Source: a virus
Reading direction: 5' to 3' (one strand)
DNA: 64,000 bases
IMG/VR virus record: IMGVR_UViG_3300025718_000002
Span: 1-64,000 of that record
Shown here piece by piece: positions 1 to 61,844 of this stretch (positions are counted from its first letter, which is position 1; each line of letters opens with the position of its first letter). A program made the position numbers and the translations under genes. The notes under the pieces were generated by a model, which did not search any database, was not told the origin of the DNA, and worked only from the letters and a program-made list of their open reading frames with translations.

Positions 1-1017
1 ATCACGAAAGATTTTGAATGGGACTCAGACCTTGCAACAAAGATCTTTAGTACAATGGGTAAAATTGGTCAACCTACAGTGAATAATTATGTTAACAGTG
101 ACTATGATCCAGATACCACAAAGAGCATGTGTTGTTCACTTAGGTTAGACATGACTCAGCTAATGAAAGCAGGAGGGCAATTTAGTAGTAATGATAACTC
201 TGGTAGTATTGGAGTTATTACACTGAACTTGCCTAGGTATGGATATGAGGCATGTAACAATAAAAAGATGTTACTACACCTAATTGTAAAAAATATGGAC
301 TTAGCAAAGGATGCACTACTAGCTAAACGTGCATACGTTGAGAAGCAAATGGAATTAGGTATGTACCCAACAATTAAGCGTTTCGTCCCTAACTTTGCAA
401 ACTTCTTTAATACTATAGGTGCTGTAGGTTTAAATGAAATGTGTCTTAACTTCTTAGGAAAGGGAATTGATACACCAGAAGGAATGGATCTTTCAAAAGA
501 AGTTTTAAAGTTTATGAATAACAGACTATCCCTATACCAGACAGAATGTAAAGATTGGTATAATGGCAGGGGCTTATGGTTTAATGCAGAGTTAGTCCCA
601 GCAGAGGGATGTTCCCATAGGTTAGCTAAGGTGGATAAGGCTAAATACCCAGATATTATTACAGCTAATGGCACAGATGGTGTTTATTATACCAGAGGGT
701 GTTGGTTGCCTAGTGATAAGGAATACTCCTTAAAATATGCTGTGGAACATCAAGAACAATTACAAAACTTCTTTAGTGGTGGTGCTAATTTCCAATATCA
801 TGTTGAGGGTACAATTAGTGGTGAAGCTGTTAAGTCACTGGTAAGTAAGATTATATTACAAACATCTTTACCTTTTGTATCAATCTCTCCTATTATTAGC
901 GTGTGTCCAATTTGTGGTCAATTACAAAGTAGTGTAGAATATTGTGAGCATGAACTCACAGAGTATCAAGTACAGGAATTAAAAGATAAGGGAGTTGAAC
1001 TTAAAAATGTTAGTTAA
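1..1017 (+). CDS. nrdD: Anaerobic ribonucleoside-triphosphate reductase (NrdD-like), C-terminal part; 5' end lies outside the window
   Basis: The frame is open from position 1 with no stop. An SMCCSLRLD segment resembles the NrdD active-site SMGCRS region. A CPICG...C.H zinc-ribbon-like cluster lies near the C-terminus. An NrdG activase gene lies 3 kb downstream. No clear C-terminal RxxGY glycyl-radical motif is seen, so the assignment is tentative. Confidence 0.5.
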   Translation: MTKDFEWDSDLATKIFSTMGKIGQPTVNNYVNSDYDPDTTKSMCCSLRLDMTQLMKAGGQFSSNDNSGSIGVITLNLPRYGYEACNNKKMLLHLIVKNMDLAKDALLAKRAYVEKQMELGMYPTIKRFVPNFANFFNTIGAVGLNEMCLNFLGKGIDTPEGMDLSKEVLKFMNNRLSLYQTECKDWYNGRGLWFNAELVPAEGCSHRLAKVDKAKYPDIITANGTDGVYYTRGCWLPSDKEYSLKYAVEHQEQLQNFFSGGANFQYHVEGTISGEAVKSLVSKIILQTSLPFVSISPIISVCPICGQLQSSVEYCEHELTEYQVQELKDKGVELKNVS

Positions 1018-1158
1018 AATCACAACAGTAGTAGTGGAAAAAATGCCAGATGATCTTGATTTTGAAGAATTTGTAAAAGATATGGCAGATATGAATACAG
1101 TGATTGAAAAATCAGATGATGAAATTATTAGTTCTACGTGTCTTGTAGAAAAAGTATG
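1006..1158 (+). CDS. Small acidic hypothetical protein (50 aa)
   Basis: ATG overlaps the nrdD stop and the frame is open for 50 codons. It is below the ORF-track size cut-off. Confidence 0.25.
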
Positions 1159-1291
1159 AACTTCTTAGTATTCTTCTTCTTAATTATCATATCTTTAATC
1201 ATTGTTGGTACTTTCCTCTCTATATCATTTGCTATAATTATAGAGAGGAAATGGATAAGACTTAAAAAGACATTTATGAAGGGTGAAAAAT
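1157..1291 (+). CDS. Small single-pass membrane peptide (44 aa)
   Basis: ATGA overlap with the preceding ORF. It has a hydrophobic core FLVFFFLIISLIIVGTFLSISFAIII followed by basic residues. Confidence 0.25.
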
Positions 1292-1580
1292 GAAAAGTCT
1301 AAAGAAATTAAAAGCTAGGGAAATGAAAGCGTCTAAGCGTATTAATCAATTCCTTACATTTATTAAATACCTGCAAGCTAAATTAGTTAACTACTCTAAA
1401 TCAAGGGTAGTATCTATGCAAAAAGAATTAGATGAGCAGGGTATTATTAGGAGAAAGCGTCTTGACTTTTTAGCACTAGAGGCAAAAAGAATTGATGATG
1501 AACTAAATGAAATTAGCCAAGCTTATGTAAGGCATACGTCAAACTTAAATAAATTAGGAGGAATTGAAAATGTTAATTAG
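1290..1580 (+). CDS. Hypothetical protein, coiled-coil
   Basis: ORF track. The RBS ggtgaaaaATG is present. Its stop overlaps the start of the next gene. Confidence 0.5.
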   Translation: MKSLKKLKAREMKASKRINQFLTFIKYLQAKLVNYSKSRVVSMQKELDEQGIIRRKRLDFLALEAKRIDDELNEISQAYVRHTSNLNKLGGIENVN

Positions 1581-2433
1581 AGGTGCAATTAAAATATTCG
1601 CTGTGTTGATAGTGGTGTTCATAGTATTCTTAAACCTCACAGTAAGTATTCCAGCAGGGTACGCAGGGGTACAATACAATACCAGTGGTGGCGTTGAAAA
1701 GGAAACATTAGCGCAAGGGTGGCATATTGTAAGCCCTATGGTGCATGTCACTAAATATCCAGTATCTACGGAAAATGTCTACTACACAAATACAGACCAT
1801 GAAGGTAGAAAGGGCGTAGATGATAGTTTCAATGTCACTACTAAGGATGGTAAGCCAGTAAAAGTTAACTATAACCTAGCTTATCATTTTGATAAAGAGT
1901 ATCTTCCAGTAATATTTACTAACTTTAAGGGTAATAATGCTGATTATATTGAATATAACTTCATGAGAAATGAGGTTGGAAATGTAATTAATGTGTTGGC
2001 AAGTAACTACTCTACTAGTGATATTTTTGGGCAGAAACGTAATGACTTCGCTGAACATATTGCAAGAGATATTACTAAAAGACTAGCAGATCAGGGGATG
2101 ATTGTAGAATCTCATAATCTTTCAAGGATTGATCCAGATGCACAAACTTTGCAAGCTATTCAAGCAGTGGTTGATGCACAGCAAAAAATGCAACAGGCAG
2201 ACTTAGAAAATCAAAGGGCAGTAATTGAAGCTAAGAAACAAATTACAGTTGCGCAGGGTATCGCAGATGCCCAGAGAATCACTGCTGACGCTCAGGCTTA
2301 CTCTAATCAAAAACTTCAGCAAACTATCACTGCGGATATTGTTTCACTGAAATGGATTGAAAAATGGGATGGTAAGCAATCTCAAACAGTTCTAGGTAGT
2401 CAACAGGGTATGATGATTAACCTAGGTAAATGA
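1564..2433 (+). CDS. SPFH/band-7 (prohibitin/HflKC-like) membrane protein
   Basis: It has an N-terminal TM helix. This is followed by GYAGVQYNTSGGVEKETLAQGWHIV..P, typical of SPFH domains. The C-terminus is Q/A-rich coiled-coil. An AGGAGG RBS precedes it. Confidence 0.8.
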   Translation: MKMLIRGAIKIFAVLIVVFIVFLNLTVSIPAGYAGVQYNTSGGVEKETLAQGWHIVSPMVHVTKYPVSTENVYYTNTDHEGRKGVDDSFNVTTKDGKPVKVNYNLAYHFDKEYLPVIFTNFKGNNADYIEYNFMRNEVGNVINVLASNYSTSDIFGQKRNDFAEHIARDITKRLADQGMIVESHNLSRIDPDAQTLQAIQAVVDAQQKMQQADLENQRAVIEAKKQITVAQGIADAQRITADAQAYSNQKLQQTITADIVSLKWIEKWDGKQSQTVLGSQQGMMINLGK

Positions 2434-2847
2434 TCTACACTTACAAATGTTCATGTGGGCATATCTTAAAAGTCTCACTATCTGGCTGGAAATTAGAATG
2501 CCCCCATTGTTTTAAGGTTATGAAAGAGGTTTTAAAATGAGTAAAAATATAGTCACATTAATACTAGTATTTACATGTGCCACTGTAGCTATGATTATTC
2601 CTCCATCGTTTTGTTACTTATTTGGATTTGCGTCAGGAGCAGGAATATTAACCTTCCATATTACCTAGTGAAGGGAGGTGGTTAATTGACCTATAAAGTA
2701 AAATGTGATAAATATTGTCGCGTAGTTGGTTATTTTGGTAAAGTTACTAATATGAACGAAGGAAAACAGAAAGAGTTTGCAGTAAAGAAATGTTTTAACT
2801 AAATTCTTTCTCTGTACTTACCCTCTCTTACTAAGAAAAGAGGGGGT

Positions 2848-3144
2848 ATGATACTTGGTATAAATATGGATTGTAAATTTAAAACTGGTGATAAGGTTAT
2901 TTTATTACAGGGTTATCCTAATGGTTGTGCTGAAAGGGATTTATGTAGATCAGGTTTAGAAATTGGTAAAATCTATACAATACGTGATTTATATCGCGAA
3001 AATGAAATAGGTTATGGCTTACCAGCAACTAATTATTATCGTGTAGTTGAGGATAGGGAAAATTTTGAATTTGATGAAAGTTGTTTTGAGTTTGAGATTC
3101 TAGTAAGTGATTTAAGCTACTTAGTAAATGTGAGGTGTTTTTAA
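2848..3144 (+). CDS. Small SH3/KOW-like barrel protein, paralog 1 of 4 (C-terminal SYLVNVR motif)
   Basis: GDKVILLQGYPNG ... C-terminal LSYLVNVR. It is similar to the next three ORFs. Confidence 0.6.
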   Translation: MILGINMDCKFKTGDKVILLQGYPNGCAERDLCRSGLEIGKIYTIRDLYRENEIGYGLPATNYYRVVEDRENFEFDESCFEFEILVSDLSYLVNVRCF

Positions 3145-3407
3145 TATTTAATGCTGGGGATAAAGTAATATTAATAAAGGGAATTCCCTGCGAGGGTGAT
3201 ACAAGGACTTTTCATACACGTTATGGAGAGTTAAAAATAGGTCAAGAATTTACTATTGCAAGTATAGAACATAAAAATGCTAGTGGTTATGGGGTGCATA
3301 ATACTAACTGGTACTATGTTAAGGGTAATTCAAGTGATTACTTTGACGAAAGTTGCTTACAATTGGCAGATATTTATGATAAAAGCTACTTAATTGATAT
3401 AAGATGA
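3135..3407 (+). CDS. Small SH3/KOW-like barrel protein, paralog 2 of 4
   Basis: GDKVILIKGIP...KSYLIDIR C-terminus. It overlaps its neighbours by a few nucleotides, consistent with translational coupling. Confidence 0.6.
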   Translation: MFLIFNAGDKVILIKGIPCEGDTRTFHTRYGELKIGQEFTIASIEHKNASGYGVHNTNWYYVKGNSSDYFDESCLQLADIYDKSYLIDIR

Positions 3408-3643
3408 GTAAGTATCAGTTAGGAGATAAGGTTTTAACCCTAGGGACTAGTTCTGGTGGTATGACTTCTGAAATGCGGAGTTATTATAAAAATAAAGTTG
3501 TTGGAACTATACACACAATTTATAATAATGATTACCATGTTTCCTTTAATACTGGTAATATTTACTCTTATTGTGATAAAGATTTAGAAATGTATTTTGA
3601 TAATAGTGATATGAGTTACCTAGTAAATGTGAGGAATTACTAA
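3404..3643 (+). CDS. Small SH3/KOW-like barrel protein, paralog 3 of 4
   Basis: LGDKVLTLGTSSGG...DMSYLVNVRNY. Confidence 0.6.
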   Translation: MSKYQLGDKVLTLGTSSGGMTSEMRSYYKNKVVGTIHTIYNNDYHVSFNTGNIYSYCDKDLEMYFDNSDMSYLVNVRNY

Positions 3644-3876
3644 TGGATTTTAAGGTTGGAGATTACGTAGAACTCACAAGTACAGATGGTGGATATAGAA
3701 GTGAGTTAAAAGCTGGGGATATTGGAGAAGTGATACATATAGAATATAGTAATAATTGGCAATATACTTTAAATGTAAAATTTAAAAATGGGCAAGAGTC
3801 AGAAAGGCTTTTAAAAAGGTTTAAACTTATAGATATTAACAGAGATATGAGTTACTTGGTAAATATAAGGACGTAG
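3643..3876 (+). CDS. Small SH3/KOW-like barrel protein, paralog 4 of 4
   Basis: VGDYVELTSTDGGY...DMSYLVNIRT. Confidence 0.6.
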   Translation: MDFKVGDYVELTSTDGGYRSELKAGDIGEVIHIEYSNNWQYTLNVKFKNGQESERLLKRFKLIDINRDMSYLVNIRT

Positions 3877-3880
3877 TAAA

Positions 3881-4354
3881 ATGAACATAGCAGGGACTAT
3901 AAAAGATGTTTTAGAACCATATAAGAAATTAACATATGAAATCTATATCAGTGGATGTACTCATGGGTGCGTAGGTTGCCATAACCCAGAGATGCAATCA
4001 TTTGATTTTGGTAAGAAATTAGATGATTGGGAATTATTTAAAATATACGTTGATATAAATGATAATATTGAATATATAGATTGTATAAGTATTCTTGGTG
4101 GGGATTTATTATGCAATAGCCCATTAGAAATAAATTTTATAATAAATACGCTAACTAATATTTTTGGTAAACATGGTAGAGAAAATAGTAATAAAAAAGA
4201 CTTCTGGTTATTTACTGGATCAGAGTTAAAAGATGTTCCTGAATTTATTAAAAGTAGGTTTGATGTAATTAAAACTGGTAAATTTGAAATAGATAAGTAT
4301 GTAGAAGGTAGATTTCCATCTAGCACTAACCAGAATGTGTGGTATAGAGAATGA
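3881..4354 (+). CDS. nrdG: Anaerobic ribonucleotide reductase activating protein (radical SAM, NrdG)
   Basis: YISGCTHGCVGCHNPE matches the NrdG CxxxCxxC cluster (compare E. coli FVSGCVHECPGCYNK). A later GGD.L motif is also present. Confidence 0.8.
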   Translation: MNIAGTIKDVLEPYKKLTYEIYISGCTHGCVGCHNPEMQSFDFGKKLDDWELFKIYVDINDNIEYIDCISILGGDLLCNSPLEINFIINTLTNIFGKHGRENSNKKDFWLFTGSELKDVPEFIKSRFDVIKTGKFEIDKYVEGRFPSSTNQNVWYRE

Positions 4355-4542
4355 AAATGAATGATGAAAAATTTCATTTAGTTAGAGATTATGTTTTTAC
4401 TGTTAAGGAAGTTTCTAAAATACTAAGAATGAGCGAAAGTAAAGTAAGGGAATTAATCAAATTTAAAAATATTTCTGCTTTCAAATTTCATGGCATGTGG
4501 TGGATAAGTAAAAAATCAGTATTTAAGGATAGAAAAGAATGA
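4351..4542 (+). CDS. Small helix-turn-helix DNA-binding protein (excisionase/MerR-like HTH_17)
   Basis: The segment VKEVSKILRMSESKVRELIKFKNISAFKFHGMWWISKKSV has the HTH_17 pattern. Confidence 0.5.
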   Translation: MKMNDEKFHLVRDYVFTVKEVSKILRMSESKVRELIKFKNISAFKFHGMWWISKKSVFKDRKE

Positions 4543-4799
4543 ATATTGATGAAATTAGAGAAGAACTTATAATTGATAGGATTGTATATTATTGCCTTAA
4601 TGAAAACCTTAAATGTGATTATGATTATGATAAGTTAGAGTCTACTCTAAAAAGAATGGTCGCAAATAACCCAGAGTTAGAAAGTCAAGGTAAATATCAT
4701 GAATGGTGTCCTGCTAGTATAGTGGGTAGCTGTAATGTTAAGGATTATCCAAAAGAGTTAGTAAAAATAGCAAAAAGGAAAGTGAAAAATTTACATTGA
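4539..4799 (+). CDS. Hypothetical protein
   Basis: ORF track. Its start overlaps the previous stop. Confidence 0.45.
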   Translation: MNIDEIREELIIDRIVYYCLNENLKCDYDYDKLESTLKRMVANNPELESQGKYHEWCPASIVGSCNVKDYPKELVKIAKRKVKNLH

Positions 4800-5863
4800 G
4801 AAAGTTAGCAAGTATACAAGTAATTGAGTCAATTAATCCCATAGCTAATGCAGATAGTTTGGAAGTATGTAAAGTCCTAGGCTGGGACGTGGTAGTTAAA
4901 AAGGGAGAATATTGGATTGGTGATATGATAGTTTTCATTGAGACTGATAGTATTCTCCCAGATCGTCCAGAGTTTAAGTTTATGCGTAGTAGGTACTTCA
5001 AAGTAAAAACAATTAAGCTTAGAGGGCAAATATCACAGGGTTTAATAATGCCCATACAAATACTTACTAAGGGAGCATGTTATATTGTTGGGCAGGATGT
5101 AACTGAGGAACTTGGAATCACTAAGTTTGAACCAGATGAATATAACAAGCCAACAAATAAAGAAAAAGTAAAATCATTTCAATTACCTAGCTGGTGTCCT
5201 AATTGGTTACATAAGATTATCAACAAAGTGTTTGGTAAGAAAAAGAAGAAAAGTATCTGGGATGTAATTCCTAAGACAGATGAAACAAGGGTACAGAACT
5301 TACAGGGGCTTTTAAATAAAACCAATGGGCAAGAATGTTATATCACTGAAAAATTAGATGGTAGTTCAATTACAGTCTATTTATACAATGGTAAGTTTGG
5401 GGTATGCAGTAGAAATATTGATCTTCCTAAGCAAGAGTCTGGTAATCAGTTCTGGAATGCTGTAATTGCTAGTGATATAGAGGAAAAAATGCGTCACTTT
5501 TATGTTGGTGGCAACAATATTGCTCTACAGGGTGAGTTAATTGGTACTGGAATACAAGAAAATAAGTACAAGTTAGCAGATAAACAGATTAAATTCTTTG
5601 GAGTATGGGATATTGACAAACAAGAATATCTTAGTTTTGATAGATTTATGAGAACTATGGTATACCTTGATTTAAGCACAGTACCAATCTTAGGATATAA
5701 TGAAGAAATTCACTCTAATATTCCATTATGGGTAGATACTGCCACTAGGAAATCAGTAATTAATCCAGACGTATTGGCAGAGGGTATTGTAGTTCGCACA
5801 TTAGACTCTAAAAACTCCTTTAAAGCAATTAACCCACAATTCCTTTTAAAGTATAATTTATGA
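4796..5863 (+). CDS. ATP-dependent RNA ligase (nucleotidyltransferase KxDG family, N-terminal OB-like domain)
   Basis: Motif I is present as YITEKLDGSS (KxDG). A motif V-like segment EGIVVRT...FKAINPQF is also present. The N-terminal LASIQVIESINPIANADSLEVCKV resembles Rnl-family N-termini. Confidence 0.65.
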   Translation: MRKLASIQVIESINPIANADSLEVCKVLGWDVVVKKGEYWIGDMIVFIETDSILPDRPEFKFMRSRYFKVKTIKLRGQISQGLIMPIQILTKGACYIVGQDVTEELGITKFEPDEYNKPTNKEKVKSFQLPSWCPNWLHKIINKVFGKKKKKSIWDVIPKTDETRVQNLQGLLNKTNGQECYITEKLDGSSITVYLYNGKFGVCSRNIDLPKQESGNQFWNAVIASDIEEKMRHFYVGGNNIALQGELIGTGIQENKYKLADKQIKFFGVWDIDKQEYLSFDRFMRTMVYLDLSTVPILGYNEEIHSNIPLWVDTATRKSVINPDVLAEGIVVRTLDSKNSFKAINPQFLLKYNL

Positions 5864-6009
5864 CAGTCTGTGAAACGTGCAGATATTCTAATGAATTATT
5901 TAAAGAGTCTATTGGGAAATGTGGGGAATGCCTAAGTATGTCAAGTGATTACGAATTATTTCCCCTATATATCAAAAGTTTATATTTTAAGGAGATTGTT
6001 GTAGAATAG
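5860..6009 (+). CDS. Small zinc-ribbon protein (50 aa; CETC...CGEC)
   Basis: ATGA overlap with the ligase stop. It has two CxxC pairs. It is below the ORF-track cut-off. Confidence 0.35.
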   Translation: MTVCETCRYSNELFKESIGKCGECLSMSSDYELFPLYIKSLYFKEIVVE

Positions 6010-6116
6010 TTAAGAAAAGAAAAAAGAAATATAAGTTACCATTTAATCCTAATTGGAAACATGACCATGCAGTATATATTAACTCTCTTAAATGGCGATC
6101 ACTTAGGGTACTGGTA

Positions 6117-6575
6117 TTGCAAAGAGACAAGAATAGATGTACTGTATGTAAATCAAAAGATCATTTACATGTTCATCATAAAACATACAATAGATTTAAA
6201 AATGAGTTACTAACTGATTTAATTACGTTATGTTCCTCATGTCACAGTAAAGTTCATAGTCTTAACGCTAAGTTAGCGAAGAAATTTATAACAAAGAAGG
6301 TTTACAATGTGGAAAAAAGCACTATTAAAAATAATGTACTAGCATTATGTATTCTTAATCCAGAATGTGTTGACAGTTATAATCTACTAGTCTATAAGTA
6401 TTGGCAACAAATTGATGGTCAAGGGCTGACTCTAGGTGTAGGTCACAGTGATGCTAAAAATGGAACTAACCTAGAGTCAATTGTAAAGGCATTTAGAATG
6501 CTAGTTGCAGATGGTTCTATTAAACAAACTGCTAAAATCAAGGAACGTAGAAAAAGATTTGGAATGGTGGCGTAA
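6117..6575 (+). CDS. HNH endonuclease. The annotated start is TTG at 6117, but conserved HNH N-terminal residues continue upstream to about 5991.
   Basis: HNH core: CTVCKSKDHLHVHHK...LCSSCHSKVH. The same frame is open from 5991 and encodes WKHDHAVYINSLKWRSLRVLVLQRDKNRC, a typical HNH N-terminal segment, with no canonical start. Confidence 0.7.
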   Translation: MQRDKNRCTVCKSKDHLHVHHKTYNRFKNELLTDLITLCSSCHSKVHSLNAKLAKKFITKKVYNVEKSTIKNNVLALCILNPECVDSYNLLVYKYWQQIDGQGLTLGVGHSDAKNGTNLESIVKAFRMLVADGSIKQTAKIKERRKRFGMVA

Positions 6576-6726
6576 TTATGCTAAATCCAGATAAAGAACT
6601 TGTGGATATGGTGCTTAGTGGATTGGCATCCAATGAGTTGAGATATGGACAAAGATACTGTCCCTGCCTTGTAAAGCATAGTGATGATAGTATTTGTCCC
6701 TGCTTGGATTATCGCACTATTAAATT

Positions 6727-7419
6727 ATGTCACTGTGGACTGTACGTGCAATGAAAATATTCAATACTAAAGTTTATGCCCTAGAGGAGTCACTTATACG
6801 TTCTGGTTATGCAATGCAAACAGAGATTCTTGATATGAATGAGGCAATTTATCAAGACACTTACTGTAGTAAGCCCTATGAATGTGGTGGTAGATATAGA
6901 AAATCAGAGGATCGCATGTCTTTTAAAAGAGGTTTTAAGTTAGGTAATATTGGTGCTGGTAGTGGAGACGATTGTTTTCTCAAAGGAATTATAGTACAGG
7001 CTGACTGTGAATTCCCTCAGTACCTTTGGCAACAAGCCAAAAGATATCACTGGTTTGATATAATTAGTAGCCAATCCACTATGCACTCCATACTTAAAAT
7101 GGATTTAGATGAAATGTATAATTCAAGGATAGATCACAGAATAAAAGATATTACTAAAGAATATATTGAAATTTACAGACAATACCCCACTCCAGAAAAC
7201 TTTGAGAATATCCTAGCTAACGTAGGGCAAGGTTTAGAACTTACAGCAGGAGTGAGTACAAATTATCTACAATTAAAGACAATGTATTACCAGCGAGAAT
7301 TTCACTTGTTACCCTGTTGGAAAGTCTTTAAAGATTGGTGCAATAGTTTACCTTATTTTAAAGAGTTATGCCTGAGAGGTAAAATGGGAATTAAAATTGA
7401 TGAAAAGGAAGTAATATAA
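6727..7419 (+). CDS. Hypothetical protein (about 230 aa; weak resemblance to ThyX in size and context only)
   Basis: ORF track. It sits between HNH and dUTPase in a nucleotide-metabolism neighbourhood. The ThyX RHR motif is absent, so no firm call is made. Confidence 0.45.
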   Translation: MSLWTVRAMKIFNTKVYALEESLIRSGYAMQTEILDMNEAIYQDTYCSKPYECGGRYRKSEDRMSFKRGFKLGNIGAGSGDDCFLKGIIVQADCEFPQYLWQQAKRYHWFDIISSQSTMHSILKMDLDEMYNSRIDHRIKDITKEYIEIYRQYPTPENFENILANVGQGLELTAGVSTNYLQLKTMYYQREFHLLPCWKVFKDWCNSLPYFKELCLRGKMGIKIDEKEVI

Positions 7420-7866
7420 ATGGCTAAAAGAACAAGAGGTTTTGAGACAATTAAGGGGTACGATAATGTAGTCCTTCCAGTGCGAAAAACTGAATACTCA
7501 GCAGGGTATGACATTGCGATACAACAGGATTACTTAATTGGTGCTTATGAAACAGTCGTATTTAGCACTGGATTAAAAGCTTACATGCTTGCAGATGAAG
7601 TTTTAGAGCTACATATTAGGTCTAGTATGGGTATTAAGAAAGGTCTTAGGTTAGCAAATGTCACTGGAATTATTGATAGTGACTACTATAATAATGTTGA
7701 TAATGAAGGTCATATCATGTTAGCAGTGCATAATGATAGTGCAGATATCTACCACTTAAATGCTGGTGACTTCATAGCGCAAGGTATATTCGTAAAATAT
7801 TTAGTAGCAGATAATGACGTAAGCACTACTAAGAGAGTAGGGGGAATTGGTAGTACAGGTAAGTAA
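7420..7866 (+). CDS. dut: dUTP diphosphatase (dUTPase)
   Basis: It has the AGYDI, RSS, GIIDSDYY and C-terminal RVGGIGSTGK motifs. Confidence 0.85.
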   Translation: MAKRTRGFETIKGYDNVVLPVRKTEYSAGYDIAIQQDYLIGAYETVVFSTGLKAYMLADEVLELHIRSSMGIKKGLRLANVTGIIDSDYYNNVDNEGHIMLAVHNDSADIYHLNAGDFIAQGIFVKYLVADNDVSTTKRVGGIGSTGK

Positions 7867-20003: not shown

Positions 20004-21359
20004 ATGCCAGCACAGGGGGAACTAGCACCTCCTAAATTCCACTATGAATGGAATGATATCCTAATTAACTCTAAGTCTCACTTCTGTGTAGAAGCATTTC
20101 GTGAGTCTGGAAAATCCCAGCTAGTAATACGTGGACATACCATCTATAGACTAGTATACCCTAGTATAGATTATGACTATATCCTACTTATCTTAGCTAA
20201 CCAACGTACAGCTAGTAAGAAACTAAAAGAGATTGCAGATGAATACTGTTCAGATCCCATCCTGAGTGCTAACCTAGTGCGAGTAAAGGAACAATCTGAG
20301 AAAGCATTTTGTGCAGAGGTATTAGATGTACATGGTAACATTGTAGAGGTAAGAATTGAGGCTTATGGAAAGGGGTCTGCGATCAGGGGCTTGTCTTACA
20401 GAAATTCGCGTCCTAAGCTTGTGGTAATGGACGATTGTCAGGACAGTGAGTCAGCACAGTCTGAGACTACCTGTGACAAGGATTGGGAATGGTTCCAATC
20501 TGATGTAATGTTCCTAGGACAGAATACACGTATCTTTATGATCGCAAATAACCTAGGTGAGCGTTGTCTAATAGAACGCACCATAGCCAATGCTAAGTCC
20601 TTAAAGTTTGAGTGGGCTAGGATACCCATCCTTGGAGATGAAGGTAAATCTAATTGGGAAGAAAAGTACAGCCCTGCTTTTATTGAGGAAGAAAGAGAAG
20701 CATATGCAACAATGGGATCTATAGATGTATGGTTTAGAGAGCGCATGTGTATCGCAATATCCCCTGAAAATCAACGCTTTAAGAAAGAGATGCTTACTAA
20801 TAGATATGAGAAAGTTGCAAAAGACCTTTCTGTATATATAACTGTAGACCTTGCAATATCACAAAAACTAACAGCAGATTATACAGCTATATGTGTAGTG
20901 GGCGTAAATAGTGAGAACCATTGGTTTATCTTAGATATAATCTATGGACGCTTTGATGTTACCAGAACTATAGATGAAATCTTTAAAGCTGTAGTAAAGT
21001 ACAAGCCCATAAAAGTTGGGATAGAAAAGGTTGGGTATCAAGCTTCATTAGAAGAATACCTAAAGAAAGAAATGCCACGCAAGAATATATTCTTTAGCAT
21101 AGATGGGTTATCTCATGGAGGTAATAAGAAAGAGTATAGAATTGAAGCACTACAACCTAGATTCTCAGCAGGAACAGTGTGGCTACCAGAAAAGGCTGAA
21201 TGGCTAACTGAATTCACTAGTGAAATACTAGCATTCCCTAGAGGAAACCACGATGATTTAATTGATGCACTAGCGTATATGGAAAAGATTGCTTATGCTC
21301 CTTCTGGTGGGTGGGGTAAGGTAGCTACTAAAGATCTACCAATGGCAGGTGAAATGTAA
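20004..21359 (+). CDS. terL: Terminase large subunit (true start probably upstream at about 19905)
   Basis: VEAFRESGKSQ is a Walker A-like segment. The C-terminal nuclease region carries acidic residues. The frame is open from 19899. A strong RBS AAAGGAG at 19889-19895 has no ATG after it, which implies a non-canonical start. Confidence 0.75.
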   Translation: MPAQGELAPPKFHYEWNDILINSKSHFCVEAFRESGKSQLVIRGHTIYRLVYPSIDYDYILLILANQRTASKKLKEIADEYCSDPILSANLVRVKEQSEKAFCAEVLDVHGNIVEVRIEAYGKGSAIRGLSYRNSRPKLVVMDDCQDSESAQSETTCDKDWEWFQSDVMFLGQNTRIFMIANNLGERCLIERTIANAKSLKFEWARIPILGDEGKSNWEEKYSPAFIEEEREAYATMGSIDVWFRERMCIAISPENQRFKKEMLTNRYEKVAKDLSVYITVDLAISQKLTADYTAICVVGVNSENHWFILDIIYGRFDVTRTIDEIFKAVVKYKPIKVGIEKVGYQASLEEYLKKEMPRKNIFFSIDGLSHGGNKKEYRIEALQPRFSAGTVWLPEKAEWLTEFTSEILAFPRGNHDDLIDALAYMEKIAYAPSGGWGKVATKDLPMAGEM

Positions 21360-21558: not shown

Positions 21559-23679
21559 ATGCCAATGCAACTTGACGAACAGACCAAGGAAGAAATTAAC
21601 AGTAAGTTACAAACAGATATAGATGAAACTAAAATATATTATGAAGATAATATTGAAAAGAAAGTAATTAACAGATATGATATGTTCTGGGCAGAACCAG
21701 AGTATTATAAAAAGAAGTTTAAAAACCTATCTCGTAATAGTTCATTAACATCTTGTGATATTCAAAACACAATAGAATGTTTAATGCCTACGATCATGAA
21801 AACCTTTTTTGGAACTGAGAATGTAATTAACATCCAGCCAGTAGGTGATGAGGATGAAGAGAAAGCTAAAACTTTAGAACTACTTTTAAAGTATCAGTTA
21901 GAAAGAAAGAACAAAGCATTTGTAATATTCTATAACTGGTTTAAGGACAGTCTCATTACTGGCGCAGGGGTTATAAAGTGCTATTGGGATAGACAAGAAG
22001 ATCATAAGGAAGATACTCAGGTAATGTCTACTGATGCTATTTCACAACTTAGACAGAGTGGAGTAGAGATTGGAGATATGAAACAACTTTCTGCTGATAT
22101 GTGGCAAGTAAGCTACACTATCAAGAATATCCTAGTGAACCAACCTAAGATTGAAAACATACTTCTATCTGAATTACTATACTCTCCCAGAGCAAGGACA
22201 CTAGAAGAAGCACCATTTGTCGCACATCGTAAGAAAGTGACAATTGATTACTTGCGTAGAAAAGAAATAGAAGGTATGTATGAAAAAGGTACTGTAGATA
22301 AAGTAGTGGCTGAAATGCAAGATCCACAAGATACTCAACTAGAGATCCTTTTAATGAATGCTGGGAACAGTACCACACCACCTAACTATAACAAGGTAGA
22401 TGATGCACGTAAAGAGGTAGAACTATTTGAGTGCTATACTAAACTAGATGTAAACCATGATGGTCTATTGGAAAACTTAATAATTACTAAAGTTGGGAAT
22501 GTGATACTTAGGGTGGAAGAAAACATCTATGGTAGGCATCCTTTTTTTATATTAAGCCCTTATAAAGATCCTCACACAATCATGCCTAGGAAAAGCTATA
22601 CTGAAACAATTGGACAGTTACAGGATTTAAAGACAGCACTAACTAAAATGATAATGACAAACACTGCTATGACAAATGATCCTAGAATTGTCATGAGCGA
22701 AGAAGCTATTAACATTGAGGATTATACTTCTGGACGTTCTGTTATTCGTAAAAAAGCAGGGTTCAGTATGGCAGATGCTTGTCAGTTAATGCCTACTACC
22801 CCTATTGCTCCTTGGACATTCCAATACCTACAGTATATAGATGATCAACAAGCAGATCGTACAGGGGTCACTAAATACACGCAGGGCAGTGATAGTTCCA
22901 GCCTAAACAAAACTGCGAGTGGGATCTCAGCAATTATGCAAGCAGGAAACGCCAGAATTGATATGATTTGCAGAATGTTTACAGAAACAGCAGTACAAGA
23001 CCTTTACAGATTCCTAATTGAATTAAATCAAAAGTTCCTAGACCAAAACACAGTCATTAGACTAGCAGGTAAACCACTTACTATCACACCAGAAGATCTT
23101 GAAGGTGAATTTGATGTAATTGTAAGCACTGGATTAGCAATGGGTACTAAAGAAATGACTTTGATGAACATTCAAACAATTATAACAACAGCTATGCAGA
23201 TCAGTTCTACTCCTGTAGGACAATCAGTAATTAGCCCCAAGAATATATATAACTTACTAAAAAAATATCTTGAAGAACTTGGAATCAAGAATGCACAAGA
23301 GTTTTTATCAGACCCAGATGTAGTTCAGCAACAGCAAGAAATGATGCAAACACAAGCATTGCAACAACTACAGCAATTGTTTAATCAAATGCCACCAGAG
23401 ATTCAGCAAGCAATTATTGCTAATGGTGGGAATGTACCTATGGAAATGGTAGTTAAATTACCATTACAGATTCAGAACTTACTAAAAATTACAGGGGGCA
23501 ATATACTTGGACATGGAAACACAGACCCTAATGGAGATCCAGCAGGGCAACAAAGCACAGGTGGTAAAGGAATTTCTAGCCCAATGGCTGGTGGAGTACA
23601 AGGAGTGGGTAACAGCCCAACTTCTCCAGTGCAAAATGGAGGATATAATCCAGTTCAGAACTATGCACCTCGTAGCTAA
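21559..23679 (+). CDS. Portal protein
   Basis: Its size (706 aa) and position directly after terL fit a portal. It has a Q-rich segment and a Gly/Pro-rich disordered C-terminal tail. Codon usage in this frame matches the genome. Confidence 0.7.
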   Translation: MPMQLDEQTKEEINSKLQTDIDETKIYYEDNIEKKVINRYDMFWAEPEYYKKKFKNLSRNSSLTSCDIQNTIECLMPTIMKTFFGTENVINIQPVGDEDEEKAKTLELLLKYQLERKNKAFVIFYNWFKDSLITGAGVIKCYWDRQEDHKEDTQVMSTDAISQLRQSGVEIGDMKQLSADMWQVSYTIKNILVNQPKIENILLSELLYSPRARTLEEAPFVAHRKKVTIDYLRRKEIEGMYEKGTVDKVVAEMQDPQDTQLEILLMNAGNSTTPPNYNKVDDARKEVELFECYTKLDVNHDGLLENLIITKVGNVILRVEENIYGRHPFFILSPYKDPHTIMPRKSYTETIGQLQDLKTALTKMIMTNTAMTNDPRIVMSEEAINIEDYTSGRSVIRKKAGFSMADACQLMPTTPIAPWTFQYLQYIDDQQADRTGVTKYTQGSDSSSLNKTASGISAIMQAGNARIDMICRMFTETAVQDLYRFLIELNQKFLDQNTVIRLAGKPLTITPEDLEGEFDVIVSTGLAMGTKEMTLMNIQTIITTAMQISSTPVGQSVISPKNIYNLLKKYLEELGIKNAQEFLSDPDVVQQQQEMMQTQALQQLQQLFNQMPPEIQQAIIANGGNVPMEMVVKLPLQIQNLLKITGGNILGHGNTDPNGDPAGQQSTGGKGISSPMAGGVQGVGNSPTSPVQNGGYNPVQNYAPRS

Positions 23680-47902: not shown

Positions 47903-47990
47903 GGAAGGTTGACAGATTGGTAATGTACTGTCCTGCTAAGACAAGGTTTGCGTAACAGCATAGCTGGTTCAATCCCAGCCCCTTCCTCCA
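47903..47990 (+). tRNA. tRNA-like gene, 88 nt (type II/long-variable-arm candidate; anticodon not resolved)
   Basis: T-arm GCTGG-TTCAATC-CCAGC, then acceptor 3' CCCTTCC, T, CCA. The 5' partner is GGAAGGT. The D-arm is ACAG/CTGT with a GG loop. The anticodon arm folds poorly. Confidence 0.5.
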
Positions 47991-47991
47991 T

Positions 47992-48067
47992 CGCCCTATA
48001 GTACAATGGTTTAGTACGGAGTCCTTATAAGGCTTTAATTATGGTTCGATTCCATGTAGGGCAACCA
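47992..48067 (+). tRNA. tRNA, 76 nt, anticodon UAU (Ile-type)
   Basis: D-stem GTAC/GTAC. Anticodon stem GAGTC/GGCTT with G-U pairs and loop CTTATAA. T-arm TATGG-TTCGATT-CCATG. Acceptor GCCCTA/TAGGGC, discriminator A, CCA. It begins 1 nt after the previous tRNA. Confidence 0.65.
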
Positions 48068-54447: not shown

Positions 54448-57400
54448 ATGCCAAACTTTGTAAACCTACATACTCATACTGAGTATTCCCAGCCTATAGA
54501 TGGAATGAGCAAAATTGAAAAAATTATACAAAGAGTTAAGGAATTAGGTCAAGGTGCTGTGGCTATATGCGATCATGGCACTTTATCTGGTTCTTTAGAG
54601 ATGTATAAAACAGCTAAGAAAAATGGTATTAAGCCAATTATGGGATGTGAAATGTATTTCACTCCAGATGTTACAATCAAGGATAGATCTAAAAGCGTTC
54701 ATATGTGCCTATATGCTAAAGATGAAGAAGGGTGGTATAATCTTAAAAAGCTTGTCACTTTGGCAAATATTGAAGGTTATTACTATGATCCCAGAATTGA
54801 TTTTGATATGCTTAAAAAGTATCATAAAGGATTAATTTGCACCACTGCATGTATGGGTGGTGTATTAAAATTAGATAACTATTTAGGATGGGCTATAATG
54901 TTAAAAGATCTTTTTGGAGATGACTTTTATGTTGCAGTTCATACTAATACAATGATAGAGCAGAAGGAATTTAATGTTAAATCTGTGGCACTTGCTAAGG
55001 AAATTGGGTCTAAACTTGTAGCAGAGGTTGATTCCCATTATGTCCTTAAAGAAGATGCAGAAGTACATAATAAGTGGGTGGGAGTTAAAGCACCTTATTG
55101 GACAGCTAAGAATTATTACCTAATGAGTGAAGTACAAACTATTAACGCTTTAACAGATAATAATGTTGTTATGATGGATACTTGGGAGGCAGTTGCTTCT
55201 ACTCAGGAAATTGCAGATAAGTGTAACGTAGAAATTAAATTTGGTGGTCATAATTATCCTGTATTTAAACAGCCAGATAAATTTAAAACTCAACTAGATT
55301 ATGTTAAACATCTTCTTAATATTGGCTGGAAGTCAAAATTAGATAAAACTAAACAAGCTGATAAAAGGTACAGAGACAGAGTATTACATGAATTAATGAT
55401 CTTAGAAAAGGCAGACTATATAAATTATATGGTCATTTCTTGGGATTTGTGCGATTGGGCAAGGAGGAGTGGAATTCGTGTTGGGGTGGGCAGGGGATCA
55501 GTTGGTGGAAGTCTTGTTGCTTTCTTGCTTGGAATTACTGGTCTTGATCCAGTAAAGTATAATCTTACATTTGAAAGATTTGTACATTTAGAGCGAGTTG
55601 CTCCAGCAGATATTGACCTAGATTTTAGTGATAAAGATAGGCAAAGAGTTATTGAATATGTTAAAGATAAATATGGAACTGTATATCAAGTACGAACTCC
55701 ATCTTACCTAGGAGACATGGGGGCAATACGGAAGGCTGGAGAGTTATTAAGTATACCAATTAGTATGGTAAATGAATGGGCAGATAAATATAATAGTATT
55801 AATGATATGGAATGTGGGGTTTATGCCATTAATTCTCTGGAAGATAAATGTTGTAAATTAGCAAGGAATATCCTTGGTTTATCATCTCATTTTACTGTAC
55901 ATGCCTCTGCTGTAGTTGTATTTCCAGATGATCCATGCAACTACACAGCAATTGAGATGCAAGGTGGTAAGGATGGTACTCAGGTGGTGTCCACTAACAT
56001 GAAGTATATTGAAGAAATGGGATGTTTAAAACAAGATATTTTAGGACTTAAAACACTTGGAGTTATTGATGAATGTTTAAAGCTTGCTAATCTTCCTATT
56101 GATTTTGTTGATAATTTACCAGATACAGACGCTAAGACATTTGAAATGCTACAGGCAGGTCATACTAGTGGATGTTTTCAGATTGAATCTTCTGGAATGA
56201 CTCAGCTAGTAATAGATTTAATTCCTAAAGAATTTACTGACTTAATACCTCTTGTGGCACTTTATAGACCTGCGTGTATTAAGAATGGTATGGTAAAGCA
56301 ATTTATAGAGGCTAGAGCAGGGAGATTACCAGTAGAGTATCCATACCACACCTTAGAAGATATTTTAAAACATACTTACGGAGTAATACTTTATCAAGAA
56401 CAGATAATGAAGATATGCCAAGTTCTAGCAGGATATACATTAGGACAGGCAGATATGCTCAGAAGGGCAATAGGAAAGAAAAACCTAGTTGCAATGGCTA
56501 ACGAGGAAAAAGGATTTAAAGCTGGGTGTTTAGCTAATAGAATACCACAAGAGAGAATAGATTATATCTGGCTGTTGATCCAGAAGTTTGCTGAGTATGG
56601 GTTTAACGAGTCTCACAGTGCGTCCTATGCAATGATAGCGTACCAGACAGCATATCTAAAGGCTCACTACCCATTAGAGTATATGTGTGCATTGCTTAAC
56701 AGTGAGATAGGAGATATGGAAAAACAGGGGGAATACGTAGGTGAAGCTAGGAGAATGGGCATTATCGTGTTGCCTGTGGACATACATAATTCTAAGCACA
56801 ATTGGACTATTAATGGCAATGGTTTGCGTATTGGTTTTAATTGCATAAAGGGCGTTGGCAAGATAAGTGTTAATCCTAATTATCCTAGTTTATATGATTT
56901 TCTTTTAGGAAATACACATTTAAATATGAGGGAATTATCAGCATTAAATAAAGTTGGTGCTTTTGACTATTTATGTAAGTCATATAAATTTAATTGGCAA
57001 GTTCTTGAGTGGTGGAATGGTGTTAATTCTAAAATAGCAAATTGTGATAAGATGATAATTGAATGGGGAGATAGGGGTAATGATAAGAAAGTAACTGAGT
57101 GGACAGTTAAGAGACTTAATTATTTAACGCTTACTTTTATAGGAGAGATCCCACCAGAACAACCAGATATTTATGACTTATTAGGGTTTCGTATGGAAGA
57201 TGTTTCTAAAACATATGATTTACGTATGCACAATGGGAATAACATACTCATTGGGGAAGTCATGTCCACTACATTTATAGTTGATAAAAATGGTGACAAT
57301 ATGGCATTTATAAAGATTAGGACTATTCAGAATAAGGTAGTAGAGTTAGTAATGTTTGCCTATGTATATAAAAAGATAATGCCAATAACCATTACCAAGG

Positions 57401-57471
57401 GACAGTATTATACTTTCAAGGTAAAAGATGGTACAAAATTACAAGATATGGTATCAACTAAAAAACTGTAA
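54448..57471 (+). CDS. dnaE: DNA polymerase III alpha subunit (DnaE-type, PHP domain + polymerase core)
   Basis: The N-terminal PHP domain reads FVNLHTHTEYSQPIDG...AICDHGTLSG. Its length of 1007 aa and a GFNESHSASYA motif fit DnaE. Confidence 0.85.
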   Translation: MPNFVNLHTHTEYSQPIDGMSKIEKIIQRVKELGQGAVAICDHGTLSGSLEMYKTAKKNGIKPIMGCEMYFTPDVTIKDRSKSVHMCLYAKDEEGWYNLKKLVTLANIEGYYYDPRIDFDMLKKYHKGLICTTACMGGVLKLDNYLGWAIMLKDLFGDDFYVAVHTNTMIEQKEFNVKSVALAKEIGSKLVAEVDSHYVLKEDAEVHNKWVGVKAPYWTAKNYYLMSEVQTINALTDNNVVMMDTWEAVASTQEIADKCNVEIKFGGHNYPVFKQPDKFKTQLDYVKHLLNIGWKSKLDKTKQADKRYRDRVLHELMILEKADYINYMVISWDLCDWARRSGIRVGVGRGSVGGSLVAFLLGITGLDPVKYNLTFERFVHLERVAPADIDLDFSDKDRQRVIEYVKDKYGTVYQVRTPSYLGDMGAIRKAGELLSIPISMVNEWADKYNSINDMECGVYAINSLEDKCCKLARNILGLSSHFTVHASAVVVFPDDPCNYTAIEMQGGKDGTQVVSTNMKYIEEMGCLKQDILGLKTLGVIDECLKLANLPIDFVDNLPDTDAKTFEMLQAGHTSGCFQIESSGMTQLVIDLIPKEFTDLIPLVALYRPACIKNGMVKQFIEARAGRLPVEYPYHTLEDILKHTYGVILYQEQIMKICQVLAGYTLGQADMLRRAIGKKNLVAMANEEKGFKAGCLANRIPQERIDYIWLLIQKFAEYGFNESHSASYAMIAYQTAYLKAHYPLEYMCALLNSEIGDMEKQGEYVGEARRMGIIVLPVDIHNSKHNWTINGNGLRIGFNCIKGVGKISVNPNYPSLYDFLLGNTHLNMRELSALNKVGAFDYLCKSYKFNWQVLEWWNGVNSKIANCDKMIIEWGDRGNDKKVTEWTVKRLNYLTLTFIGEIPPEQPDIYDLLGFRMEDVSKTYDLRMHNGNNILIGEVMSTTFIVDKNGDNMAFIKIRTIQNKVVELVMFAYVYKKIMPITITKGQYYTFKVKDGTKLQDMVSTKKL

Positions 57472-59780: not shown

Positions 59781-61844
59781 ATGGGATTAATTGAAACAAT
59801 TAAGGACAAGATAAATCTCCAAGAATACTTAGATCAGAATTATAAGCTTAGATTTAAAAAAGCTGGTAAAGGATATACTTGCAAATGTCCACTGCATGTA
59901 GATACAGGAGATAAAACTCAGACTTTCCACGTTGATCCATACAAGGGAATGTTTCACTGTTTTAGCTGTTCTAAAGGTGGGACAATATTTGACTTTATAA
60001 TGTTCAAAGAAAATGTTCCTTTTGAATCTGTGTTAATGAGACTTGCTGGGGAACTTAATCTTAACCTTGCGAATAGCCCAGAGTGGAAGAATCAACAATC
60101 ACTATCTAAATCAAATCAACTTATTATGGAACGTGGTAAGGCTAAAATAGGGGCTGTTAGGGATTATCTAGTCCTTAAAAGAGGTTTTACAGATAAAACA
60201 ATTGATGAATTTGATCTAGGATATGGTAATGCTGGGTTAACCATAGGTGGCGTACTAATTCCAGAAGGTGTCTTGTTCCCAATTAAAGATGTGAATAGGA
60301 GAGTTATAGCTTTTGCAGTAAGGCAAGACACTCAACCTAAGTATGTAAATAATGTCAATAATGCCCTTTACATTAAGTTAGAAACTTTATATAACATGGA
60401 TAAAGCCAAGGACATAATGTATAAGACTAATTCGCTGTATGTTGTAGAGGGTTATACTGACGCTATTTCAGCACATCAGCAAGGTCAAGAGTCTGGTCTT
60501 GGTATGGCGTGTGTAGCTTATTGTGGTCAAGAGATATCAATAGATCAAATTAGGTTAATACAGAAAGTTGCCCCCAATCCTCATATGAATATATTCCTAG
60601 CCCCAGATAATGACGAGACAGGTAAGAGGCACATAATTAAAATTAGAGAGAGGTTTATAAACTTTGCTCCAAAATGTAATGTCAGGGTGGTATTGTTTCC
60701 ACAAGAAGATTGCACATTTGCTAATGGTGATGTCAGAAAAATTAAAGACTTCAATGATTGTCTGGTTCTTGGTATTCTTATTGCAGATCTTCCTACTGAA
60801 CATATTGACCTACACTGCCTTAAAAGCGATCTAAGCACTTGTGTATATATAGAGGATGAGTTTATGTGTGTCAGGGAATTTGTTTCTCAGATAGACAATA
60901 AAATGATCCTTATTGATTTAGCTAAGTATCTAGCTGGTAGATGGAAAAGAAAAGAAGAAGATGTTTTAGATTTCTTTAACATTAAATCTTCTACTAATGT
61001 AGCTGATAGGTTTAAAAGCTTTGGGCAAGGTATAGACGCACACAGAAAAATGTTGGCTCACTCTACAGGGTTAGAATTAGGATTTCCAGAGATTGACGCT
61101 ACTTTAAAAGGTGGAGTTAGGCTTACAGATGTAATTTTAATTGGTAGTCCTCCTAGTGTTGGTAAAACGTGGTTTGCTATTGAGACAGCATTGCATTTTA
61201 TTAGACAAAAGAAAAGGGTGCTTTTTATATCGCTAGAGATGGATATGGCAGGGTTATTTGAGAGAATACTTGCTAATTTACGTGGGGTTAGTGTAGATGA
61301 ACATAATGAACATGTAAGACAAGGGCTTGTAGATGATGATACAATAATAAGGCAATTTGATAAGTATCTAAAAGTTATTGATGATAGTAAAATGTCTTTA
61401 AAAGATATTGAAGATTCACTAAAGTATGCTAATACAGTTGTTTTTGAAGGTGAAAAGGTTGATCTGGTAATTATTGACTATTTACAAATGATGCAAGGTG
61501 TAAAGAAATTCGAAGATCTTGAGGAAGTTGTGGTAGGTCTTAAAACAGTAATAGCTAAACCTTTTAACTGTGTAGTATTAGCACTATCTCAAATGAACAG
61601 AGAGTATAAACCTTGGGTGGAAAATGATATGTCAGCCTTAAAGGGTACAGGTGCATTAGAAGCTACAGGGGATATCATAATGACCATGTGGAAACCTGAG
61701 AGTAACCCAGATATTACCCTAGCCGAAAAGCAAAAATGTGCAGATCAAATAGAAATGAAAATCGGAAAAGCTAGAAGAGGTAAGAAAAGGGAAAGATTCA
61801 CATTAAAAATTGATTACAAAAAGACTAGGCTGGAGGTAATATAA
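59781..61844 (+). CDS. Primase-helicase (DnaG-type CHC2 zinc finger + TOPRIM + DnaB-like helicase)
   Basis: Zinc finger CKCPLHVDTGDKTQTFHV...FHCFSCSKGG. TOPRIM region YVVEGYTDAIS. Helicase Walker A ILIGSPPSVGKTWFAIE. Confidence 0.85.
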   Translation: MGLIETIKDKINLQEYLDQNYKLRFKKAGKGYTCKCPLHVDTGDKTQTFHVDPYKGMFHCFSCSKGGTIFDFIMFKENVPFESVLMRLAGELNLNLANSPEWKNQQSLSKSNQLIMERGKAKIGAVRDYLVLKRGFTDKTIDEFDLGYGNAGLTIGGVLIPEGVLFPIKDVNRRVIAFAVRQDTQPKYVNNVNNALYIKLETLYNMDKAKDIMYKTNSLYVVEGYTDAISAHQQGQESGLGMACVAYCGQEISIDQIRLIQKVAPNPHMNIFLAPDNDETGKRHIIKIRERFINFAPKCNVRVVLFPQEDCTFANGDVRKIKDFNDCLVLGILIADLPTEHIDLHCLKSDLSTCVYIEDEFMCVREFVSQIDNKMILIDLAKYLAGRWKRKEEDVLDFFNIKSSTNVADRFKSFGQGIDAHRKMLAHSTGLELGFPEIDATLKGGVRLTDVILIGSPPSVGKTWFAIETALHFIRQKKRVLFISLEMDMAGLFERILANLRGVSVDEHNEHVRQGLVDDDTIIRQFDKYLKVIDDSKMSLKDIEDSLKYANTVVFEGEKVDLVIIDYLQMMQGVKKFEDLEEVVVGLKTVIAKPFNCVVLALSQMNREYKPWVENDMSALKGTGALEATGDIIMTMWKPESNPDITLAEKQKCADQIEMKIGKARRGKKRERFTLKIDYKKTRLEVI

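Follow-up and report, generated by a model that had tools for sequence, protein, structure and literature searches.

Four tandem paralogous genes encoding SH3-like small barrels with a shared C-terminal peptide in the anaerobic ribonucleotide-reductase operon of a large tailed phage

The 64,000-nucleotide stretch of viral DNA analyzed here (the window; positions 1 to 64,000 of IMG/VR record IMGVR_UViG_3300025718_000002) is part of a large, uncultured tailed phage and carries, on its plus strand at 2848-3876, an array of four small overlapping open reading frames (ORFs) within an early or nucleotide-metabolism operon. The four ORFs are paralogues, each specifying a soluble protein with a single barrel, predicted to be of the SH3-like class, and each ending in nearly the same nine-residue peptide. 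The barrel itself is of an already known kind, the small phage SH3-like barrel; what is new is an orphan four-gene array with a near-constant C-terminal tail. We favor, tentatively and with somewhat less than even confidence, the view that the four proteins are diverged binding modules that use a common docking peptide to reach one external partner. Here, we describe the evidence for the array, its predicted fold and the constraint on its tail, and weigh this reading against other explanations.

Three of the ORFs begin with ATG, namely ORF1 (2848-3144, 98 aa, with an isoelectric point (pI) of 4.6), ORF3 (3404-3643, 79 aa) and ORF4 (3643-3876, 77 aa), and ORF2 (3135-3407, 90 aa) begins with GTG. 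Pairwise BLASTP comparison relates ORF2 most closely to ORF1 (40% identity, E = 3.6e-16) and ORF3 to ORF4 (32%, E = 9e-9), followed by ORF1 with ORF3 (E = 5e-6), ORF2 with ORF3 (E = 6e-5) and ORF2 with ORF4 (E = 2e-3); the match between ORF1 and ORF4 (E = 0.007) is confined to the tail. These values give the tree ((1,2),(3,4)) and, at the level of sequence comparison, confirm that the ORFs are true paralogues, diverged copies of one gene. A first-pass annotation of this DNA had proposed such a paralogous array, and the coordinates it gave are likewise borne out. The core common to all four proteins, (F/Y)xxGD(K/Y)V ... G ... N, is followed by the tail and then by zero to two residues. The invariant positions are, in ORF1 numbering, G14, D15, V17, G40 and N52, together with D88, S90, Y91, L92 and R96 of the tail. 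The tail has the consensus D-x-S-Y-L-(V/I)-(N/D)-(V/I)-R and reads DLSYLVNVR followed by CF in ORF1, DKSYLIDIR at the very C-terminus of ORF2, DMSYLVNVR followed by NY in ORF3, and DMSYLVNIR followed by T in ORF4. In a six-frame scan of the window the pattern SY[LIVM][LIVM][NDE][LIVM][RK] has exactly four matches, each at a C-terminus of the array and zero to two residues before the stop codon, in agreement with the shared peptide noted in the first-pass annotation. A profile of the four proteins detected no fifth copy among all ORFs of the window. Two further assemblies, made independently from different samples (Logan SRR3989256 and ENA ERZ27294299), carry the DNA of the array with 100% identity, and the array is therefore not an assembly artefact.

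The ORFs overlap by 10 nt (ORF1/ORF2), 4 nt (ORF2/ORF3, in which the ORF3 start overlaps the ORF2 stop as ATGA) and 1 nt (ORF3/ORF4, TAATG), and the ORF4 stop is separated by 4 nt from the start of nrdG at 3881. Junctions of this type fit translationally coupled cistrons, as had been suggested for the array. The start of ORF1 could alternatively be the ATG at 2866 (MDCKFK...), which aligns better with the other three copies but lacks a Shine-Dalgarno sequence. ORF2 has no ATG. Its sole canonical start, GTG 3135, abuts a GAGG with zero spacer, and the codon homologous to the ORF4 ATG is ATA 3144, in the arrangement GAGG-N8-ATA; which of the two serves as the ORF2 start is uncertain. The ORF1/ORF2 junction (3132-3153, GUUUUUAA) reads G-UUU-UUA-A, and a -1 slip of the P site at the ORF1 stop would fuse the two products. 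Sigma-70 promoter-like sites around the array are not enriched (17 versus 19.8 expected), and no intrinsic terminators were called there.

The tail is far more constant than the rest of the protein: amino-acid identity between copies is 72% over the nine tail codons versus 28% elsewhere. Within the 21-nt stretch encoding SYLVNVR there are 12 nucleotide differences from the consensus, none of which falls at codon position 2, and the resulting codon changes comprise five that are synonymous (AGC/AGT, TTA/CTA/TTG, AGG/AGA), four that are conservative (V/I three times and N/D once) and none that is radical. Random placement of an equal number of changes reproduces this outcome with P~1e-4, a value that is tempered by the fact that some tail changes are shared by descent, so that the events are not fully independent. 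Since the differences are all synonymous or conservative, we infer selection on the tail peptide. The comparison thus shows a constraint at the amino-acid level, as the first-pass annotation had argued from the AGC/AGT and TTA/CTA/TTG changes, to which AGG/AGA can be added.

Structure prediction places the array proteins in a common fold class. An AlphaFold model of ORF1 built from an alignment of the four sequences reached a predicted local distance difference test (pLDDT) score of 50 and was not usable. An alignment of 34 sequences (A3), consisting of the four ORFs and 30 repeat segments taken from remote HMMER matches, yielded a model of ORF4 with a pLDDT of 83.9 and a predicted template modeling score of 0.69, in which five strands are followed by the tail at a pLDDT of 55-77. 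The modeled domain is a five-stranded, strongly bent antiparallel barrel of about 60 residues, which is the definition of the SH3-like small beta-barrel class. The KOW/SH3-like assignment of the first-pass annotation therefore stands as to fold class and not as to the KOW family, for Pfam KOW (PF00467) gave no match at E<=1 to any of the four proteins. The resemblance to KOW, Tudor, Mib-Herc2, PetP and SPbeta YorP barrels, with 12-20% sequence identity and no Pfam match at E<=1, is likewise one of fold class rather than family. In a Foldseek search of viral models, ORF4 matched dozens of uncharacterized phage proteins of 55-100 aa, several of them DUF4314 proteins (E = 7.5e-4 to 4e-3). The phrog_5785 profile matched residues 2-65 of ORF4 (E = 3.4e-6) and none of ORF1-3; DUF4314 (PF14192) scored 12.5 bits against ORF4 (E = 0.14), versus a gathering threshold of 27, and had no match in ORF1-3. 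The array thus resembles the DUF4314/phrog_5785 proteins in size class, five-stranded barrel and phage origin but differs in that ORF1-3 belong to no significant PHROG or Pfam family. DUF4314 is not mentioned in the literature searched. A sequence-profile search of the PDB gave only noise (best E = 0.34), and the PADLOC defence models matched neither the barrels nor the nearby SPFH protein. By fold, the array domain is of the ordinary and very common small phage barrel kind. We rejected a likeness to the R67 (DfrB) dihydrofolate reductase (DHFR) heterotetramer: such a likeness would require sequence homology that includes the active-site segment S-V-Q-I-Y, and with a manually entered R67 query sequence hhalign gave a probability of only 1%, over 15 aligned columns.

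At the sequence level the array is an orphan, with no counterpart to the four genes and their shared tail in the public data searched. Among 5.8 billion proteins, a profile search recovered nothing beyond the four queries, each of which lies in a cluster of one or two sequences. Scans for the tail pattern in IMG/VR, in JGI metagenome contigs and in GTDB genomes, which cover the search for other proteins ending in SYLVNVR that had been called for, yielded no confirmed relative, and megablast of 1500-5900 and tblastn of ORF1, ORF3 and ORF4 against 50,697 phage records (GenBank phages) found nothing significant. The tail DxSYLVNVR was present in no protein found at the sequence level in these collections. 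An exhaustive HMMER search of 1.84 billion representatives produced 28 non-self remote matches (E = 1e-17 to 1e-3), of which 25 have two to six matched repeats, two have one and one has none. Their repeats have in common with the array the core (F/Y)KxGDxV ... G.xG.I ... Y.V ... LEL, with weak per-repeat scores (mostly 10-25 bits among the repeats used for the alignment). P0005 combines an N-terminal glucosaminidase with repeats, five in the search output and six by eye in its sequence; P0007, of 328 aa, has four repeats that by eye are most like ORF1 and ORF2. These multi-repeat 'KFKVGDKV...LELV' proteins are the only relatives of the array at the sequence level, and they carry their barrels fused in one chain by short linkers, whereas the array has one barrel per cistron, each with the conserved tail. 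In most of the 30 remote repeat segments the ...LELV strand closes the domain; the four ORFs run about 12 aa further, past the equivalent strands FEFEI (ORF1), LQLADI (ORF2), LEMYF (ORF3) and FKLIDI (ORF4). The alignment thus shows the tail as an appendage outside the barrel, at the position of the inter-repeat linker of the fused homologues.

The explanation that we favor is as follows. Tandem duplication of one small phage gene would have produced the four coupled cistrons, which lie as an insertion in the anaerobic ribonucleotide-reductase operon, with the 3' piece of nrdD on one side and nrdG on the other. Each cistron specifies a soluble acidic protein in which about nine C-terminal residues follow a five-stranded SH3-like barrel. 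The barrels, with 27-40% identity, would be variable modules for binding proteins, and the tail would serve as a short linear motif through which all four dock at a common site, most likely on a single host or phage partner. A shared external partner is favored because only fold-determining residues (G14, D15, V17, G40 and N52) are invariant between the barrels and no sign of a tail receptor is seen on them; this is expected if the partner recognizes the tail and not the barrel surface. The low pLDDT of the tail in the model would fit a segment that becomes ordered on binding. The pI values of the four proteins (4.6-6.0), unlike those of nucleic-acid-binding KOW domains, are acidic, the grand average of hydropathicity ranges from -0.16 to -0.61 and the sequences have no hydrophobic stretch, which favors protein binding over nucleic-acid or membrane binding. 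Several points weigh against this explanation. It is based on four sequences from one phage without orthologues, and on a selection test of few and partly non-independent changes. The mostly multi-barrel remote homologues fit mutual assembly at least as well as an external partner. In addition, a nucleotide-level contribution to the conservation of the tail is real: rare codons are retained there (TAC in all four copies, at a usage of 26%, and AGG in three of four, at 22%), and identical residues are encoded by identical codons somewhat more often in the tail (68%) than in the core (49%; Fisher p=0.059).

The main rival, which we consider possible but doubtful, is that the array is a split repeat protein: the coupled cistrons would be made in equal amounts, and their products would form a hetero-oligomer joined by contacts of the tails with barrels or with one another, a non-covalent counterpart to the fused relatives with three to six barrels. 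The prevalence of two to six repeats among the remote matches (25 of 28, P0005 and P0007 among them), the location of the tail at the inter-repeat linker position and the overlapping cistrons, which suggest stoichiometric synthesis, all speak for it. Small barrels also commonly oligomerize through their edge strands, as in the Sm/LSm rings of paralogues and the R67 DHFR tetramer. On the other hand, a conserved tail needs a conserved receptor, and no barrel surface is conserved beyond the fold-determining residues; moreover, the linkers of the fused homologues are short and proline-rich and do not resemble the tail. It is improbable, in our estimation, that the tail is a C-terminal degron or protease-adaptor tag that would make the four proteins equally short-lived or hand the targets bound by the barrels over to a host AAA+ protease. 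Such a role would suit a hydrophobic-rich motif placed zero to two residues from the C-terminus. The motif, however, has no sequence similarity to any known degron that could be compared, and the residues that follow it differ from copy to copy, which is unusual for tags read from the free C-terminus.

Still less probable is the proposal that the tail-coding stretch is mainly a nucleotide-level signal, that is, a translation-initiation region, a coupling element or a recombination site. The tail-coding stretches form a family of 30-nt direct repeats with 70-80% identity, and at three of the four junctions their last codons (GTG AGG or ATA AGG) contain the Shine-Dalgarno sequence of the next gene. 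GAGG at 3132-3135, in the ORF1 stretch (3109-3135), lies 8 nt upstream of ATA 3144, the start-homologous codon of ORF2; GAGG at 3631-3634, in the ORF3 stretch (3608-3634), lies 8 nt upstream of the ORF4 ATG; and AAGGA at 3867-3871, at the end of the ORF4 stretch (3844-3870), lies 9 nt upstream of the nrdG ATG. The retained rare codons also favor this proposal, as does a possible parallel in another phage-like contig (L005, described below), in which a common C-terminal Lys/Leu tail immediately precedes the next start in nine of 13 neighboring small genes. Nevertheless, all 12 nucleotide differences in the SYLVNVR stretch are synonymous or conservative, and even the TTA/CTA change at the first codon position is synonymous. 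In the ORF2 stretch (3378-3404), the last codon of which overlaps the ORF3 ATG, the Shine-Dalgarno sequence has been lost (AGA) and the peptide kept. The spacing between the tail and the next start varies: the arginine codon overlaps the start at ORF1/ORF2 and ORF2/ORF3, and the gap is 8 nt at ORF3/ORF4 and 10 nt at ORF4/nrdG. This variation argues against an element of fixed position or one acting purely at the RNA level, and no conserved RNA structure beyond a 3-bp stem was apparent from the sequence, read without a folding run. The view of the first-pass annotation that the peptide and not the DNA is conserved therefore holds for the constraint on the peptide, but part of the conservation serves the nucleotide level, as the Shine-Dalgarno sequences and retained rare codons indicate. 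We also observed tRNA-Ser(GCU) and tRNA-Ile(UAU) genes side by side at 47903-48067, which read the tail codons AGC/AGT and ATA; this is probably coincidental. A very low likelihood attaches to the suggestion, also made in the first-pass annotation, that the barrels are NfeD-like partners of the upstream SPFH protein and dock through their common tail. A small beta-barrel is a feature of NfeD proteins, whose genes pair with those for SPFH proteins, and an SPFH/band-7 gene (1564-2433, plus strand; Band_7 E = 4e-25) does lie upstream in the orientation of the array; one of the remote repeat proteins (P0014) matches NfeD, though below threshold (E = 9.5e-4, 19.8 bits versus a cut-off of 29.1). The array is not directly downstream of the SPFH gene, however. 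The 414 nt between them hold a 43-aa membrane ORF, the 38-aa C-terminal piece of NrdD and an 11-bp hairpin, and the SPFH gene belongs to a cassette that splits nrdD, with the array beyond the NrdD piece and the hairpin, so that the two look like separate insertions. None of the four proteins matches Pfam NfeD (PF01957) at E<=1 or has a membrane anchor, and their predicted fold is SH3-like, whereas NfeD has an OB fold and a membrane anchor. An nfeD gene, moreover, is usually upstream of its SPFH gene, and at the one locus examined in Bacillus phage vB_BanH_RonSwanson the SPFH gene is followed by DNA polymerase I, with no barrel neighbors. Least credible of all is that a single four-repeat gene has decayed into the four ORFs through frameshifts, or that programmed -1 frameshifting joins them again. 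From each ORF to the next the reading frame steps by -1 (start coordinates modulo 3 of 1, 0, 2 and 1), tRNA-Phe in the P site could slip at the ORF1 stop, ORF2 lacks a normal ATG with a well-spaced Shine-Dalgarno sequence, and a fused four-repeat relative, P0007, exists. The frame steps are nonetheless explained by the ATGA and TAATG overlaps, and the ORF2/ORF3 and ORF3/ORF4 junctions have no slippery sequence; at ORF2/ORF3 the -1 frame does not open until 6 nt ahead of the ATG. The breaks coincide precisely with the ends of domains and come with start codons and Shine-Dalgarno sequences, unlike random decay, and the sequence is identical in three assemblies. A programmed fusion of all four ORFs was rejected, as only the ORF1/ORF2 junction has a U-run.

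The phage origin of the window is evident from genes for a terminase (20004-21359), an SU10-type portal (21559-23679), a DnaE-type polymerase (54448-57471) and a primase-helicase (59781-61844). The window has a GC content of 34.8%, and the public contig that carries these genes is 119.5 kb long. The GC content of the array (30%) is like that of nrdG (28%), and a foreign origin deduced from composition was therefore rejected. The nrdD gene upstream of the array is in two pieces, 1.67 kb apart, with five ORFs between them, of which one is the SPFH gene. The large ORF (55-1017) stops after CPICG...CEH and a conserved extension of about 20 aa, and NrdD models matched it only up to positions 543/581 (TIGR02487) and 647/684 (PRK08270). 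The C-terminal piece (2686-2802, plus strand) is a 38-aa ORF with a strong Shine-Dalgarno sequence (GAAGGGAGGTGG) and the glycyl-radical motif RVVGY; it covers positions 550-576 of 581 in TIGR02487 (E = 5e-5) and 650-681 of 684 in PRK08270. No Rfam match, to group I or any other intron, was found at E<=1 in 800-4000. Split phage nrdD genes have already been reported in general (PMC3653736). Within the 1.67-kb cassette the SPFH gene is flanked by two very hydrophobic mini-ORFs, at 1138-1293 (51 aa) and 2537-2668 (43 aa, with a good Shine-Dalgarno sequence), which are better candidates than the barrels for SPFH-associated membrane partners. The hairpin (2819-2847, plus strand; ACCCUCUCUU...AAGAGGGGGU) is GC-rich, has a centroid structure of -16.5 kcal/mol and ends 1 nt before the ORF1 ATG. 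Its 3' arm forms the ORF1 Shine-Dalgarno sequence, and the hairpin lacks a downstream U-tract; its possible roles are regulation of translation, an influence on RNA stability or RNA processing.

Downstream of the array, nrdG (3881-4354, plus strand) encodes a radical-SAM activase. Its closest relatives have 38-45% identity, and a scan of IMG/VR with NrdG returned no relative. At two of the compared loci, L006 (region compared, 5090-7456) and L007, nrdD is followed directly by nrdG, and at a third, L008, the nrdD N-piece (5174-6880), a 45-aa glycyl-radical ORF (6867-7004) and nrdG all overlap. A stand-alone glycyl-radical peptide is thus kept in two phage lineages, that of the window and that of L008. 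Because nrdD or its C-terminal piece abuts nrdG in these closest relatives, the array is taken to be an insertion. In L009 (5254-6909) and L010 (2711-4366), nrdD and nrdG are set apart by four unrelated small genes, among them one of the Pyr_excise/endonuclease V type. By gene order, the nrdD-nrdG junction is a recurrent insertion site, occupied by four barrels in the window and by other genes in L009 and L010, and the SPFH cassette and the barrel array seem to have entered the ribonucleotide-reductase operon separately. Farther along, a 230-aa ORF (6727-7419) stands between nrdG and a dUTPase gene, at the position that ThyX (Thy1) has in L006. It has no NCBIfam match and no precomputed Pfam match and may be a divergent ThyX or a replacement gene.

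A possible parallel to the array was seen in L005 (NCBI GCA_034680565.1, JAXOUH010052710.1), an unrelated phage-like contig of 22% GC that holds P0020, the best single-domain remote match, and, two genes upstream of it, a second barrel paralogue (A3 profile, E = 4.6e-7). At 2553-6530 of this contig, a Lys/Leu tail of the form K[LIM]x(x)[LIMF][LIMYT] terminates nine of 13 consecutive small genes, among them the two barrels, which belong to the superfamily of the array; examples, which come from barrel and non-barrel genes, are LKQKLDLLLEK, LKLKLDILLK and KMKLQLLLNGK. The pattern occurs in 1.8% of internal 14-residue windows, although its definition came after inspection of the data and the extreme AT content may play a part. 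Shared C-terminal tails among neighboring small phage genes may thus recur. We regard as unlikely a broader proposal, in which short C-terminal 'address' peptides common to co-located small phage genes would direct different small modules to a single hub or build them into a non-covalent multi-barrel protein; if it were true, the array, with one tail on four barrels of 27-40% identity, would be its clearest case and L005 a possible second and independent one. Few unexplained genes are as common in phage genomes as small SH3-like ORFs, and a conserved tail under clear protein-level selection on four diverged barrels is an unusually direct experimental handle on them. Should the tail prove to act in docking or assembly, it would point to one manner in which such small modules are organized; if not, the array would be an accessory gene family restricted to one lineage and lodged at the nrdD-nrdG junction, a known hot spot.

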